Virus record (IMG/VR): IMGVR_UViG_3300008259_002957 | From: a virus | Taxonomy: Duplodnaviria > Caudoviricetes | Length of the DNA stretch: 64,000 nucleotides | Direction: 5' to 3' (one strand) | Part shown: one piece after another, positions 33,842 through 39,774 of the stretch | Layout of the letters: every line of letters starts with the position of its first letter | How positions within the stretch are numbered: position 1 is the stretch's first letter | Notes under the pieces: model-generated | The model's input: the letters and a program-made list of their open reading frames with translations, nothing else | Databases searched by the model: none | Told to the model about the DNA's origin: nothing | Translations under genes and position numbers: made by a program

Positions 33842-35566
33842 TTATGCCGTAAATGGTTCATTGCCTGCCGGAGGTGCTGCGGCGCCTGCTGGTGCTGCTG
33901 GTGTTTCGCCTTCTGCTCCTAGATCGGGTTCCTCGCCTTCAGCAGATCCGAGATCGTTGCTGATATCCGCACCTGAAATACCAGCGCCTCTCATTTGTGC
34001 TGATGCATCTTGTTCGCCAACAGCAAACGACTCATCGTTTTCTTCTCTCCACATGCGTTCGTTTTCAGCAACTTCTTCTTTTGATAGTCCTAAGAAACGC
34101 ATCAATGCAAAACGATTTGAAATAAATGGAATTTGCTGAATTGTTGAGAATGTGTTGATACGATTTGTATCTAGTTCTGCTTGACGATAACTTGCAAAGT
34201 TTTGCGGAGGTTGCAGTTTTAGATCAAACATCGCAACGTCAATGTTTACACCTTTTTGTGTTAGATAAAGTTTAAACTCTCTGTTGAAAATTTCTGATAC
34301 TAAGGTTTGCAAACGTTCGCAGTAATTGTTGAAACGTAGTTCTTGAATGTATGCTGTTCCAACACGGCCGTCATTGTATTGACTGTTTGCATCATCAGCG
34401 CCAGTTGGAAGGTACGAACTTGGGATACGTAGTCCGCGTAATAACTTATTAGTGAAGTATCGTAAATCATCAATCTCTCCTAGGTTAGTACCGCCTGGTA
34501 GTGTTTCAACTTTACTTCCTCTACCTTCAGCAGTTTGAGGGAAGAAGTAATCTTCATTGATACTCAGTGGGTTGTATGTGCTATCAATAATGTTAGCGCC
34601 GCCGCCAGTTTTACTTGGTATTCTTCTTTGGTGAATTTCTGTTTTAACTCTTTCAACAAACTGCATTGCAAGGTGACTGGGCATGTTACCTACGTCAACA
34701 TAGAATACTCTGCGTTCTGGCGCACGTTGTACACGATAGATAATAATAGCATCTTCCAGCAGTTCTTTTTGTTTATAAACTTTAAAGATAGTTTCAAGTA
34801 AACTGTTGCCAAAAGGAAAATTGTTGTCTAGACCTTCGCTTAGACTTAGATGAACAACATGTTCTGCATCAATTGCTGTTTCGTTTGACTCATTCATAAA
34901 ACGACTAGTTGATGAATCAGGTGTTCTACCTGTCATGTATTTCTGATCAAGTGTTTGATAGCCGGGTTGGTTTCCGCCTGGGCCGTAAGCATTTGTTGTG
35001 TTGATCTTTGTTGCACTTAATCCTTCAAATGCAATGTTTAGATCACGTACAATATACTGCTCAGGTCTTTTGCCTTCGCTTTCGTTAACAATAATCTTTG
35101 TTAGGTTGGCTGGATCAATGTGAAACCATTTTTTATTTTCTGGATCACGAATAAAAAATTGATCGCCATATTTAAAAACGTTACGAATAATTTTAAACAT
35201 ACGAGTTTCAAACTCGTTGATCTTGCACCACTGCTTTAGGTATTGTGCTAGAACTGTAATTTCTGTGTTGGTTGCAGGACTGTTAAACTGAATACGGAAA
35301 GGTGTATTGTTTTCTTTGTTCACTTGAGTACAGAATTCAGCAAGAATATCCAATGCTGCATTAACTTCACTGTCATTGTCCATGGTGTTGTATTGACCGT
35401 AGCGTTCAATACGATTAGGTGATCCAACATAAACATCTGGCAGGTGACTGCTATAGTTTGTAGCAGCAGGTCCTACTCCGGTACCTCGTGCAAAACTAAA
35501 CGGCGAATAACTTCCGCTTACATTCATATTTGTAGGAACGGGGGTAAAATACTTTTTCCAACTCAT
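33842..35566 (-). CDS. gp20: Portal protein (T4 gp20-like)
   Basis: LLEDAIIIYRVQRAPERRVFYVDVGNMP, EDYFFP..EGRGSKVETLPGG.NLGEIDD..YF..KL.RGLRIP motifs. Confidence 0.96.
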   Translation of the reverse strand: MSWKKYFTPVPTNMNVSGSYSPFSFARGTGVGPAATNYSSHLPDVYVGSPNRIERYGQYNTMDNDSEVNAALDILAEFCTQVNKENNTPFRIQFNSPATNTEITVLAQYLKQWCKINEFETRMFKIIRNVFKYGDQFFIRDPENKKWFHIDPANLTKIIVNESEGKRPEQYIVRDLNIAFEGLSATKINTTNAYGPGGNQPGYQTLDQKYMTGRTPDSSTSRFMNESNETAIDAEHVVHLSLSEGLDNNFPFGNSLLETIFKVYKQKELLEDAIIIYRVQRAPERRVFYVDVGNMPSHLAMQFVERVKTEIHQRRIPSKTGGGANIIDSTYNPLSINEDYFFPQTAEGRGSKVETLPGGTNLGEIDDLRYFTNKLLRGLRIPSSYLPTGADDANSQYNDGRVGTAYIQELRFNNYCERLQTLVSEIFNREFKLYLTQKGVNIDVAMFDLKLQPPQNFASYRQAELDTNRINTFSTIQQIPFISNRFALMRFLGLSKEEVAENERMWREENDESFAVGEQDASAQMRGAGISGADISNDLGSAEGEEPDLGAEGETPAAPAGAAAPPAGNEPFTA

Positions 35567-37953
35567 CTACCAACACCTCTCATTGCATCTGTTCCTAAAC
35601 TTTTAATTGATCTTGTAGTCTGTCTTGCTACATTGACAGAATCTTGTAATAAATCTACTGCTTTTAGCATACTTGTATTTAACTCTTCTACTTTTTTAAC
35701 CAATTGCGATTGAATATTATTTAAATTATTATAAACTTGAGTTTCTTGTGGATTCAACACTCTTTCGCCTTGATGAATCTGTGTTATTGCATTGTTTGGC
35801 TCTGCTGGTAATCCAGTTGACCTATAAGTCCCAATCTGTCGACGATTAATATCAGGTGCAGGCACTGCTGGATTACCGGGTCGATAAGCTATAGGAGCTT
35901 TATTTGGATCAGTTAAATTAGCAATAGTTTTTGCAAAAAGTTGTCTTTCTTCTTCAGTCGCTGTTCCTGCTTCGTATTTTGCGCCAAGAGATTCAAGTGC
36001 TGCTTCTATTCTTCCATTCATTGTCCAATAGTCGTCAGCACTATCACCTAGATGTTGCATTAACTTATCGTAGGTTTCTTTACCACCAACAGATTCTACA
36101 CCAGCAACTTCTGATACGTTCCAAAATCCTTTACCAAGTGCTGCGGTTAGTGCATTTTCTACATCAATGTTACCACCTGTAGTTGCTTGTCTGTTTGCAA
36201 CTTCTTCTCTGTCAATACCTAACAAAGTGTTCAAGGTCGTACTATTAACGAACATATCTTCAATAGTTCGTACTAAGCCTTCGAAGAAGTCTGCAATGTT
36301 ATTTCTTAATGCTAAACCGGTTTCACTGTTCCACCAACCAGAAATAGTTTCACCAACAGTTTTCATAGCATCCCAAAAAGCATCATAGATGTTTTGTCTA
36401 CCTTGTTCATCAAATGGATTATAAAGTGTTGGATCAAATCCTTGCAACCACGTTGCAAAATTTTCAAGTTCTGTTGTTATAATAGGTGTATAGTATTCAA
36501 CCCATTGACCAAATTTGTCAAGTCCGCTCATAACTGCTTCGTTTCCAAAGAACGAAGTTACCATTTTTGATAGTGAGTCTCTAACACCTTGTGTTGCAGT
36601 GTCAAATGTAAGTATTGCTTCAGCAGCAGGATCTAATTTACCACCCAGTGAATCAATATCTCCAGAATATATATTTAAACCGTTTATAATTGCATTAAAT
36701 GCGTCACCAATTGGGCTACCTTTCATACTTAAAATAGCAGCAAGTTGTGCATTTTCATCTATCCAACTTTGTAAACTTATTGCTAGATTATGATTTTGTT
36801 CTCGAACAGTGCCCATAAACTCGTCTGTTGATCCAGCAAAGGTTTGTGCAGATTGCTTTTGACTTTCAAGTGCAGATTGAATGTCTGGCATAACTGCCGC
36901 CATCTTTTGAGAGCCTTCAGTTAAAGGTGAAACTCCCATAATAGTTGCCATTGCAAGTTCTCTACCCGAGTCTCCAAATGTAGCACCATATTCTTCAATT
37001 AGTCTCTTATACTTGTCTTGTAAAGCAGGATCGTCTATGCCTGCAATAAACGCTTCGAACCCTTTGTGTAAATTAGCTTTTTCTAATTCACCTTGAATTT
37101 CGTCTACTTGCTTACCTGTTAACTCAGAAAGTTTTCTTAAATTAATAGCATAACCTTGACTCATATTCGTTACATCAGATTCAGTAATAGTTCTTCTTCT
37201 TAGTGCAATAGCATTTTGAGCAAGAAATTCTGTGAATATTTCACCTTGTTCGGAAAAACTCATTCCCCAGGCTGCAAGAACATTTTTGTTATTATTAAAT
37301 GCTCGTTGATTTAAAATCATCGCAGTTCTAGCGCCTTTTGATGCTGTACCAAGCATTGCAAGTTGTTCAGAATTAGCAGCAAGACTAGCAGCCATTCCTT
37401 CGAGTGACTGTCCGGAACCAGCATACATCTCGGTTAAACTTCCAACCATGCCACCAAGTTGTATACCGCTTTTGCTTAGATCTTGAAATGTTGTATAGTT
37501 TCCATAAACAAGTTTAGTAAGAACGTTGACCGCAGTACCTAATCCTAAGATGTTTAATCTGCTATCTTCAATAGCACCAGTAAAGTCTGTAATCGTTGGC
37601 GGAGAAGTAATCATCATTTCAGTAAATTGACTGAATGCAGTTATGCCACTACCAACAGCAGTACCAAGACCGCCAATAATTTTAAATACGCCCATAAATG
37701 CTTTGCCAACAACCGCAACACTTGTTGTTAAAACACTTAAACTACTACCAAGGTCATCAACTTCTTCGGCAGTATCTTCAGAAGCATCTCTTAAATCACG
37801 TAATCCTCTATTGGCACTGCTAGTGCTAGCACCAGATTGTTTTGCTAATTTTTCCATTGCTTCTTTAAGCAAGACTAATGTTGCTTCGCTAGCAGCGTTC
37901 TCTAACAGAGAACCGTCGAGATCACCACCTTTTATACTAACTCTTTCAGCCAT
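35563..37953 (-). CDS. Tape measure protein (probable)
   Basis: 796-aa Ala/Gly/Ser-rich helical protein with amphipathic segments, next to hub-chaperone genes. TAAATA at 38011-38006. Confidence 0.7.
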   Translation of the reverse strand: MAERVSIKGGDLDGSLLENAASEATLVLLKEAMEKLAKQSGASTSSANRGLRDLRDASEDTAEEVDDLGSSLSVLTTSVAVVGKAFMGVFKIIGGLGTAVGSGITAFSQFTEMMITSPPTITDFTGAIEDSRLNILGLGTAVNVLTKLVYGNYTTFQDLSKSGIQLGGMVGSLTEMYAGSGQSLEGMAASLAANSEQLAMLGTASKGARTAMILNQRAFNNNKNVLAAWGMSFSEQGEIFTEFLAQNAIALRRRTITESDVTNMSQGYAINLRKLSELTGKQVDEIQGELEKANLHKGFEAFIAGIDDPALQDKYKRLIEEYGATFGDSGRELAMATIMGVSPLTEGSQKMAAVMPDIQSALESQKQSAQTFAGSTDEFMGTVREQNHNLAISLQSWIDENAQLAAILSMKGSPIGDAFNAIINGLNIYSGDIDSLGGKLDPAAEAILTFDTATQGVRDSLSKMVTSFFGNEAVMSGLDKFGQWVEYYTPIITTELENFATWLQGFDPTLYNPFDEQGRQNIYDAFWDAMKTVGETISGWWNSETGLALRNNIADFFEGLVRTIEDMFVNSTTLNTLLGIDREEVANRQATTGGNIDVENALTAALGKGFWNVSEVAGVESVGGKETYDKLMQHLGDSADDYWTMNGRIEAALESLGAKYEAGTATEEERQLFAKTIANLTDPNKAPIAYRPGNPAVPAPDINRRQIGTYRSTGLPAEPNNAITQIHQGERVLNPQETQVYNNLNNIQSQLVKKVEELNTSMLKAVDLLQDSVNVARQTTRSIKSLGTDAMRGVGR

Positions 37954-38024: not shown

Positions 38025-38888
38025 ATGGTTCCCCAAAGCGCAAATCCTCTATCAAAGCATTTCAGACAGCCTAAAATTTATATACGTCTACCGAGTGAAG
38101 GATTGTGGTACGGCAATGCACTGGAAAAAACAGAATCGGGTGAATACCCTGTGCTTTCTATGACTGCAAAAGACGAACTGTCATATAAAACTCCAGATGC
38201 ATTACTCAACGGTCAAGCAACTGTTGATGTAATTCAAAGTTGTATTCCAAATATCAAAGATGCATGGAAAGTTCCAAACATTGATTTGGATGTTATCTTG
38301 ATTGCAATTAGAATTGCAACCTATGGTGAAAAAATGGACTTAACCATCACTGTTCCAGGTATAAACGAAGAGCGTGGATTCGAAATTGATCTAAGAACAG
38401 TAATGGATCAATTTATGACTGCTTCCTTTGATAATATTGTTGTAGTTGATGAGTTTCAAATTGAAATACAACCGATTTCTTATAAATCTTCAAACGACAT
38501 TTCAATCAAAACGTTCGAAGAACAACGTATATTTTCTCTATTGAAAAACAACAACATCAGTGAAGAAGATAAGTTAACAAGAATTAGAGAAAGTTTTGAA
38601 AAACTCACAAACATCAACATCGAACTGGTAAAAAACAGTATTGTTTCAATTCGTTATAACAATGACGATGCTGTTGTTAATAAAAATTATATAAGTGAAT
38701 TCATTGACAATGCTGACAAAAAAATCTATTATGCAATTGTCAAGCACATTGAAAATCAAAGAAACAAGTTTACTATTAGACCATTTAAAACAACACTGCC
38801 TCCCGAAGATGTTGAACGCGGTGCACCAGAATTTTTAGAAATTCCAATCACATTTGATCAAGCAAGTTTTTTCGGCAAAGGATCTTAA
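38025..38888 (+). CDS. gp26: Baseplate hub / tail assembly chaperone (T4 gp26-like)
   Basis: NPL..HFRQP.IY..LPS, V.SMTAKDE, D.D.ILIAIR..TYGE motifs and a C-terminal ..SFF. CAGGAG SD. Confidence 0.8.
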   Translation: MVPQSANPLSKHFRQPKIYIRLPSEGLWYGNALEKTESGEYPVLSMTAKDELSYKTPDALLNGQATVDVIQSCIPNIKDAWKVPNIDLDVILIAIRIATYGEKMDLTITVPGINEERGFEIDLRTVMDQFMTASFDNIVVVDEFQIEIQPISYKSSNDISIKTFEEQRIFSLLKNNNISEEDKLTRIRESFEKLTNINIELVKNSIVSIRYNNDDAVVNKNYISEFIDNADKKIYYAIVKHIENQRNKFTIRPFKTTLPPEDVERGAPEFLEIPITFDQASFFGKGS

Positions 38889-38928
38889 CTTTACCATTAG
38901 AAGAAATTCTAAAACAAGTTGAGATCCT
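38867..38928 (+). promoter_or_regulatory. Predicted -1 programmed ribosomal frameshift signal
   Basis: Slippery heptamer T-TTT-TTC (38867-38873), 5-6 nt spacer, 13-bp stem (38879-38891 with 38916-38928, one G.U) topped by TTAGAA-GAAA-TTCTAA. Confidence 0.75.
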
Positions 38929-39103
38929 CGAACAAGAGTCAAAACAACTAAAACACGACTTGTACAAATTGTGTTGGTACATGAGAGGAGGCTTATCTGT
39001 TACAGAGGCCTTCGATCTGTCATTCGAAGATAGAGAAATATTATCAAACATTGTCAAGGACAATTTAGAAACTTCTAAGAAAACCGGACAACCGTTCTTT
39101 TAA
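38867..39103 (+). CDS. gp51-like chaperone domain in the -1 frame, with no upstream start codon of its own
   Basis: The frame is open from TGA 38855-57 to TAA 39101-03 and encodes RQRILTLPLEEILKQVEILEQESKQLKHDLYKLCWYMRGGLSVTEAFDLSFEDREILSNIVKDNLETSKKTGQPFF. The first ATG is at 38981. Confidence 0.7.
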   Translation, partial: FFRQRILTLPLEEILKQVEILEQESKQLKHDLYKLCWYMRGGLSVTEAFDLSFEDREILSNIVKDNLETSKKTGQPFF

Positions 39104-39646
39104 TTAAAGTCTTGCTTTTAGTGCAGCTTTTTGTTGAGGTGTTAAACTATTAACAAAGGCTGTTATATCAGGAGCACCGCCAGATGGCGGTGGTGGGTTA
39201 CCACCTGATGGCGGTGGTGGGTTACCACCTGGTGGCGGATTACCTGCTCCTGTAGCAGGTGGAGTAGAAGGTCTAGCATATCTACTTTTTCTCGATCCGG
39301 GACCAGCAGATTGGAACGCTGCTCTAACAGCTTTGTCAACGTATTGTTTAACTTCTGCAGAAGTTAAAGGAGCATCGGGTTCTGTACCTGTGTTGCCACT
39401 TGTACGATCTCCAGCAATACTATCAACAGTGGCTGGATCAAGTCCTTTTTGATCTAAGAAATTTTTAAATTGATCAATAGTAATGTTTGGTAATCTACTA
39501 TGTTTCATCCAAGTTTTGAGATCAGCAGTTATTTGTCCAGCATCGGCTTTGATATTTTTACCTACTTTTCTGTCTTGTTTCCATTGTTTAGTAAATGGAA
39601 TTGCTTCATCTAATTCTGATTCAGAGATAACTTGATTGATTTTCAT
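39104..39646 (-). CDS. Hypothetical late protein with Pro/Gly-rich C-terminal repeats
   Basis: Likely start ATG 39646 (MKINQVISESELDEA) after TAAATA 39678-39673. Contains GGNPPPPS repeats. Confidence 0.7.
   Translation of the reverse strand: MKINQVISESELDEAIPFTKQWKQDRKVGKNIKADAGQITADLKTWMKHSRLPNITIDQFKNFLDQKGLDPATVDSIAGDRTSGNTGTEPDAPLTSAEVKQYVDKAVRAAFQSAGPGSRKSRYARPSTPPATGAGNPPPGGNPPPPSGGNPPPPSGGAPDITAFVNSLTPQQKAALKARL
39183..39230. repeat. Perfect 24-nt tandem repeat (2 copies, plus a degenerate neighbour)
   Basis: GATGGCGGTGGTGGGTTACCACCT twice, encoding GGNPPPPS on the minus strand. Confidence 0.9.
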
Positions 39647-39774
39647 TTTATTAGATCCTAAATGATTTATTTTATTTATCATAGCAAGATGAACTGCGTT
39701 CATCTGTATCTTCGCTTACGCTCAATACATAATCTTTTTTTTAATTATATAAGCACGAAGTGTATAAATTTTCT

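Follow-up and report, generated by a model that had tools for sequence, protein, structure and literature searches.

A conserved slippery heptamer and a predicted -1 frameshift in the PF12322 baseplate-hub assembly gene of a tailed phage and its relatives

Do two overlapping reading frames at the end of a phage baseplate-hub assembly gene belong to two separate proteins, or to a short and a long form of one? The question is raised by IMG/VR virus record IMGVR_UViG_3300008259_002957 (Duplodnaviria; Caudoviricetes), a stretch of 64,000 nucleotides (nt) from a giant freshwater phage, referred to here as the window, in which a gene of the gp26/gp51 family (PF12322) stops shortly after a slippery heptamer, T-TTT-TTC, while an open reading frame (ORF) continues in the -1 frame. 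An earlier note on this DNA, made from the sequence alone, had proposed that the two frames are joined by a programmed -1 frameshift. By comparing the locus with its relatives we show the signal, its register and its conservation, conserved coding in the start-less -1 frame, in-frame fusions of the two parts in another lineage, and a difference in the number of PF12322 genes (one versus two). These comparisons make it highly probable that a programmed -1 ribosomal frameshift would generate isoforms of 287 and 359 amino acids (aa) of a hub-assembly chaperone. A literature search found no published report of this frameshift, and none is annotated in the records of the eight isolates considered here.

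The slippery site and the -1 frame in the window and its relatives

The zero-frame gene, whose 3' end reads AGT TTT TTC GGC AAA GGA TCT TAA, encodes a protein that matches PF12322 (T4_baseplate) over residues 50-248 (40 bits, E 4.7e-10; gathering cut-off 24.5) and PHROG 150, "baseplate hub" (E 2.7e-13); with the same Pfam model T4 gp26 and T4 gp51 score 215.6 and 177.5 bits, respectively. Judged by its sequence, the short form very probably consists of the PF12322 domain only and is comparable to T4 gp26. At the DNA level a megablast search among 50,697 phage records gave no relatives of the region, and the nearest isolates by protein are the jumbo phages Phosso and Atu_ph07 (30-33% identity), PA5oct and the RaK2/BF/XbC2/A4 groups.

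On re-reading the window, the ORF ending and the X-XXY-YYZ register of T-TTT-TTC were exactly as the earlier note had given them, and so were the 76-codon -1 frame, the stop that shuts it upstream and the absence of ATG until 38981 (for the coordinates of all features see Table 1). The candidate starts in the -1 frame are TTG at 38960 (codon 29) and at 38969 (codon 32), both left unmentioned in that note, and the ATG at 38981 (codon 36); there is no ATG, GTG or TTG before codon 29. A -1 slip would link 283 zero-frame residues to the 76 residues of the extension, giving a product of 359 aa with the junction ..QASFF/RQRILTLP... The 287-aa and roughly 359-aa products that had been proposed are thereby supported, as predictions, by the conserved register and the start-less, conserved -1 ORF described below. 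The motif alone is no evidence, since the window holds 34 copies of the heptamer where 34.8 are expected by chance, and its significance comes from conservation in relatives. As a separate observation, three lake/freshwater metagenomes contain a further contig, of another related phage, whose match is confined to 34 nt, 38856-38889 (heptamer and 5' stem arm, two differences), and whose flanks do not fit the window.

The comparison set comprised 80 IMG/VR loci (40-56% protein identity) together with Atu_ph07 and Phosso; among the 81 evaluable loci there are 50 distinct sequences of the junction and 47 of the -1 peptide. Conservation of the heptamer across related phages, put forward earlier as a check, was found in full: T-TTT-TTC stands in the X-XXY-YYZ register in 81 of 81 evaluable loci, and among isolates it is in register in Atu_ph07, Phosso, BF, XbC2, A4, RaK2 and PA5oct, while the Ralstonia phage RsoM2USA has T-TTT-TTT in its place. 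Specifically, BF, XbC2, A4, RaK2 and PA5oct carry NNT TTT TTC in register followed by a -1 ORF of 70-73 codons. The two-frame arrangement spans the 50 distinct junctions and isolates of six host genera. Its layout varies little: the zero-frame stop follows the heptamer at +1 codon in 42 of the 50 distinct junctions and at +4 codons in the other eight, the -1 frame is shut 3-24 codons 5' of the site in the relatives (3-17 among the distinct junctions), and in the 80 complete loci the -1 ORF has exactly 76 codons, save for 77 in Phosso, with one further locus running off its contig.

The spelling of the heptamer was compared with that of other conserved positions in a codon-column control of 55 genes. 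The two Phe codons are TTT in 55/55 and TTC in 55/55, with TTC accounting for only 23% of Phe codons overall, and all 69 of the other conserved degenerate amino-acid columns use at least two codons. Moreover, the codon 5' of the T-run ends in T in every one of the 55 genes, yet encodes N, S, T, D, H, A or R. T4 gp26 ends ..EFFELL with its FF spelled TTC TTT and has no extension, and the protein sequence thus does not dictate the heptamer. Within the genes compared, the signal is conserved at synonymous sites beyond the needs of the protein, with three frozen positions.

The -1 peptide is conserved from residue 1, with the pattern R-x-[RKS]-[LIV]-[LF] ... WYMRGG ... up to a PFF end, in which the first Arg is invariant; in the sequences at hand the start-less -1 frame is conserved as coding from the slip site on. 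A profile of this peptide had 488 matches among 1.84 billion proteins, most of them ORF calls of 40-100 aa with ragged N-termini, as expected of a start-less frame. Among the best 150 matches, about 20 are PF12322 proteins of 319-351 aa with the -1 domain at their C-terminus, that is, natural in-frame fusions. In one of these (P0021) the Pfam match extends to residue 255 and the C-domain begins at 256; the fusion junction reads ..F-R-x-K-L-I.., and the Arg there corresponds to the invariant Arg1 of the -1 peptides. In the DNA of the fusion locus L091 no slippery sequence is present at the natural-fusion junction, and the junctions of the short and the long gene both lack the heptamer. A profile of the natural fusions matches both frames of the window collinearly, with E 5e-57 for the zero frame and E 2e-29 for the -1 ORF.

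In the isolate records the extension is missing from the annotation of RaK2, PA5oct and RsoM2USA and appears as a separate hypothetical protein in Atu_ph07, Phosso, BF, XbC2 and A4. The "intergenic" gaps behind the baseplate hub genes of RaK2 (L085:2350-2713) and PA5oct (L084:2353-2575) are the -1 extension ORFs. For annotation this means that the extensions of the eight isolates should be re-annotated as joined coding sequences. The 40-aa gp687 of Atu_ph07 (L001:3109-3231) is a truncated call starting at the conserved Met of WYMRGG. In RsoM2USA the slip site (L087:2267-2276) is a T9 run followed by a -1 ORF of 80+ codons, and it is at this locus that transcriptional slippage would be most plausible.

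Downstream RNA structure and competing explanations

The 13-bp stem with one G.U and an enclosed GAAA hairpin that the earlier note had drawn is the predicted minimum-energy fold of the window (-22.5 kcal/mol, z -3.7), and none of 200 shuffled sequences was equally stable. The stem begins 5 nt 3' of the heptamer and encloses an inner 6-bp hairpin (38897-38902 / 38907-38912) with the GAAA loop. Its presence in relatives was tested with RNAalifold, then by a direct test of the window stem and then by single-sequence folds. In the direct test 64.5% of cells pair, which is above all 500 shuffles and all slid controls, and compensatory pair types occur at two stem positions (CG/AU/GU/GC and CG/UA). 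Folded singly, the junctions have a mean minimum free energy of -14.5 kcal/mol vs -8.0 kcal/mol for windows within the same genes, and about 70% of the distinct junctions form a hairpin with a 5' arm that starts from AGG 5-6 nt past the heptamer and a 3' arm that is either distal or proximal. A downstream hairpin, as the earlier note had expected, is thus seen in most junctions, with some covariation, at two pairs, but the hairpin is not universal and has two different 3' partners. A stimulator is likely in the window but not constant across the family.

What we infer for the slip and its rate, for the role of the hairpin, and for the chaperone function and the partners of the two forms is as follows. 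Most ribosomes would read FF (TTT TTC) and terminate four codons further on, yielding the 287-aa short form, while in some ribosomes both tRNA-Phe, paired with UUU-UUC, would slip back by one base and re-pair on U-UUU-UU. Translation would then resume in the -1 frame with Arg (CGG), and the slip would add a 76-residue helical domain to give a 359-aa form with the architecture of T4 gp51, i.e. PF12322 and a C-terminal tail. The stem-loop 5 nt downstream would probably raise the slip rate. Both forms would act as non-virion chaperones in the assembly of the baseplate hub and tape-measure complex, and through the extra domain the long form may bind one partner more, as for gpG/gpGT in lambda.

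Several observations weigh against this proposal. The stretch was looked for in RNA-seq runs and found in none. The related sequences are non-independent samples, and the FF motif is conserved as protein, in T4 gp26 too, so that conservation of the heptamer is in part conservation of amino acids. With respect to the stimulator, RNAalifold gave no single consensus structure for the 50 junctions, and about eight distinct junctions are without a notable hairpin. Finally, an ATG overlapping the stop as ATGA is present in about 10 of the 50 junctions, among them those of Atu_ph07 and Phosso, and could permit translational coupling.

The last point bears on whether the 76-codon ORF could be a separate small gene, translated by its own initiation or by termination-reinitiation, with the T-run kept for the Phe-Phe ending only. 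The ATG at codon 2 of the -1 frame, which overlaps the stop in Atu_ph07, Phosso and about eight metagenomic junctions, speaks for this, as do the annotation of the extension as a separate gene in BF, XbC2, A4 and Phosso and the FF ending shared with T4 gp26. However, an ATG, GTG or TTG at or before codon 1 is present in only 10 of the 50 distinct junctions, and the other 40, including the window, are without one, in line with the start-less -1 ORF that the earlier note had looked for in relatives; ahead of codon 21, all three codons are lacking in 16 junctions and ATG in 27, while the -1 ORF of PA5oct has no ATG at all and that of RaK2 none before its middle. In the loci that have it, the codon-2 ATG occupies a position otherwise taken by I, V, L, Q or S and, on this comparison, is an amino-acid variant and not a conserved start, whereas the Arg 5' of it is invariant and is the junction residue of the natural fusions. 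The three frozen synonymous positions, which behave unlike every other conserved codon, also argue against a separate gene. Reinitiation fits only the minority of loci with the ATGA overlap and explains neither the invariant Arg nor the frozen synonymous sites; as an account of the locus we consider a separate gene improbable.

Two further explanations place the event at the level of transcription or of the DNA itself. In transcriptional slippage, RNA polymerase would drop one U so that a subset of mRNAs encodes the fusion in frame. The site is homopolymeric (T6, and T9 in RsoM2USA), and the same two isoforms would result, so that most of the comparative evidence does not separate this from a ribosomal slip. 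Efficient transcriptional slippage usually requires runs of about 8-9 or more. A strict X-XXY-YYZ register, a seventh position that is always C and a T that always precedes the run are needs of tRNA re-pairing and not of polymerase slippage, and an RNA hairpin at 5-6 nt downstream is typical of ribosomal frameshifting; we regard slippage by the polymerase as less probable again than a separate gene. That the two frames result from a homopolymer indel, or from a recent frameshift mutation splitting one gene, is hardly credible, even though homopolymers are error-prone and fused, in-frame versions exist in another lineage. Freshwater-metagenome contigs of three separate studies span the whole stretch with zero differences and zero indels, and the contig of a fourth study is identical over 38700-38893 and 38965-39136, slip site included; two of these studies may be the source of the window DNA itself. 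Identity of the contigs of separate studies across the T6 run indicates that the run is real and not an assembly error. The same two-frame layout with the heptamer in so many distinct junctions and host genera argues against decay as well, and so do the in-frame fusions, whose identity is only about 26% and whose junction differs. The explanation that we favour remains a programmed -1 ribosomal frameshift.

Short and long PF12322 proteins in T4, in tandem-gene phages and in comparison with lambda

For decades, to our knowledge, it has not been clear what gp26 and gp51 of T4 do in hub assembly. The short member of the pair, gp26, has 208 aa and the ending given above, and the long member, gp51, has 249 aa and consists of PF12322 and a 48-aa tail, a pairing that matches the short and long isoforms predicted for the window; the junction point, at the C-terminal Phe of the PF12322 domain, is common to both. 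In T4, however, the two proteins come from two genes on opposite strands and no frameshift is involved. One strand carries genes 26-25 and the other 51-27-28-29, in that order, and with 26 and 51 on different strands there is no T4 26-51 junction for comparison. The T4 proteins also differ in having the Cys pairs of a zinc ribbon, which the window protein lacks, and the C-domain has 76 aa in the window vs the 48 aa of the gp51 tail. Both gp26 and gp51 have been listed as hub assembly chaperones, gp51 being required yet not present in the particle (Leiman et al. 2010, PMC3004832).

The downstream ORF had been labelled gp51-like, and this did not hold. Since T4 gp51 is itself PF12322 with a C-tail, the gp51 equivalent is, by domain architecture, the entire 359-aa fusion and not the downstream ORF. 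With hhalign the long fusions align to the gp51 family collinearly through the tail, weakly (probability 54%, E 1.3e-4). Comparisons of the tails only (C-domain vs gp51 family, RaK2-group tails vs gp51 tails) were non-significant at E 0.06-0.19, in the same register, and the C-domain profile was non-significant against the single sequences of T4 gp51 or gp26. We dropped the assignment of the -1 ORF as gp51-like by homology on account of these tail-alone and single-sequence comparisons, and the equivalence is one of architecture only; for homology between the 76-aa domain and the gp51 tail the alignments are at most suggestive. In precomputed annotations a second family, PF28602, lies on gp51 homologues (P0157-P0248), presumably on the C-tail, and is absent from the long fusions.

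The structure of a natural fusion was predicted with confidence (predicted local distance difference test 90.5, predicted template modelling score 0.86), and its C-domain is modelled as four helices. Fold matches of this model in BFVD were only to baseplate hub and hub-assembly proteins of other myoviruses. Against the PDB (Foldseek; VIA-align, 48,161 chains) there were generic helical-hairpin matches only, and nothing meaningful was found among the Swiss-Prot AlphaFold models.

Counted over whole records, PF12322 genes number two in T4 (26 and 51) and one each in Atu_ph07, RaK2, PA5oct and BF; a scan with the fusion profile revealed no second PF12322 gene within the window. On the fusion contigs a short PF12322 gene (287-294 aa), which resembles the zero-frame protein of the window, precedes the long one, and these contigs and the window share the synteny of a T4-type portal, a divergent gene (about 830 aa on the contigs, 796 aa in the window) and then the PF12322 gene(s). 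In such tandem pairs of uncultured T4-like phages (L090/L091; P0154/P0021 and P0155/P0031) the short gene product is 28% identical to the window zero-frame protein over its full length, and the long gene carries the C-domain of the window; there, unlike in the window, a second paralogue with Cys residues is the partner to which this domain is joined in frame. All the lineages that we examined have, by observation or by prediction, one short and one long PF12322 protein. The pair derives from two genes in T4 and in the tandem lineage, and the window clade would use one gene and a frameshift.

Tail assembly chaperone genes are known for a similar arrangement. The lambda gpG/gpGT pair reportedly arises by a -1 frameshift that is conserved among such genes, and -1 frameshifting is also the case for P2 E/E+E', at T-TTT-TTG, and for Mu. 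Like lambda G/GT, the window gene would give a short and a C-terminally extended product with a common N-terminal domain, its X-XXY-YYZ heptamer lies a few codons 5' of the zero-frame stop, its -1 ORF is start-less, and it is a tail-assembly gene adjoining a probable tape measure gene; the T4 homologues of its product are assembly chaperones not found in the virion. Unlike G/GT, the window protein has no detected relation, in sequence or fold, to the known families of tail assembly chaperones (Pfam gives PF12322 only, with no PDB match), its gene runs divergently to the putative tape measure gene and does not lie co-directionally just upstream of it, between tube and tape-measure genes, its sizes would be 287 and 359 aa vs about 140 and 280 aa, and its supposed role is in hub assembly of a T4-type baseplate. 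Of the earlier "G/GT-type" claim, what stands is an analogy of mechanism and role; neither homology nor gene position makes the window gene a member of that family.

Beyond the window we put forward, as a serious though tentative possibility, that T4-type myoviruses possess the two-isoform tail chaperone system that is near-universal in long-tailed phages, but in the non-homologous PF12322 family. Here, the gp26/gp51 pair would go back to a single frameshifted gene, by duplication and loss of the frameshift, and this gene would survive in a large jumbo-phage clade (RaK2, PA5oct, Atu_ph07, and the freshwater phage of the window with its relatives); the C-domain would recruit a second partner (tube, hub or tape measure), and the stoichiometry of hub assembly would follow from a fixed frameshift ratio. 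If gp26 and gp51 are short and long forms of one ancestral chaperone, this would provide a concrete and testable model for T4 hub assembly, in which each of the two parts, shared domain and extension, has its own binding partner and recoding sets the ratio. If true, the rule of frameshifted pairs for tail chaperones would extend to T4-type contractile tails through a non-homologous protein, which would argue for convergent selection on fixed isoform ratios.

Neighbouring genes

Table 1. Positions of the slip-site features, the two frames and the divergent neighbour within the 64,000-nt window
Feature	Coordinates	Strand	Remarks
Short-isoform gene, gp26/gp51-family (PF12322) baseplate-hub assembly protein	38025..38888	+	287 aa; Pfam and PHROG
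TGA shutting the -1 frame	38855..38857	+	6 codons 5' of slip site
Slippery heptamer T-TTT-TTC, X-XXY-YYZ register	38867..38873	+	first T = third codon position
-1 extension, predicted C-terminal domain of long isoform	38873..39103	+	76 codons and TAA (39101-39103)
Candidate stimulatory stem-loop	38879..38928	+	13-bp stem 38879-38891 / 38916-38928, one G.U
Zero-frame stop TAA	38886..38888	+	4 codons past heptamer
796-aa divergent neighbour, probable tail tape measure / hub protein	35563..37953	-	context

The earlier note had taken the divergent neighbour for the tape measure gene. It is indeed adjacent and divergent (Table 1), while the evidence for its identity is weak. No match in Pfam or PHROG was obtained for the 796-aa protein, and it shows no similarity to T4 gp29; tape-measure clusters make up most of its language-model neighbours (score 0.93-0.94), a lead and no more. 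The gene syntenic with it in RaK2 is annotated as similar to tape measure protein, and that in PA5oct encodes a virion protein according to mass spectrometry. The PA5oct hub gene, the counterpart of the window gene, has no mass spectrometry note, unlike its neighbour. Taken together, the 796-aa neighbour is likely the tape measure. The hub gene is adjacent to and divergent from the putative tape measure gene also in RaK2, PA5oct and BF.

Further neighbours in the window encode a T4-type portal (PF07230), a SegE-type GIY-YIG nuclease and a gp46-like SbcC. The nuclease gene (40166-40591, minus strand; 141 aa, PF19835, E 1e-33) lies between the gp46-like gene and the hub locus, and on a contig of the sister lineage a SegE-type gene is also located near the PF12322 pair. 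On the contig of GCA_015689235.1 the portal gene by the tandem PF12322 pair encodes 1015 aa and has an intein (PF14890) inside the Portal_T4 domain. Finally, an ORF of 199 aa (39104-39703, minus strand) abuts the end of the -1 ORF; it has no Pfam or PHROG match, and its DNA holds a direct repeat (~39180-39240) that would encode a Gly/Pro-rich peptide repeat on the coding strand.

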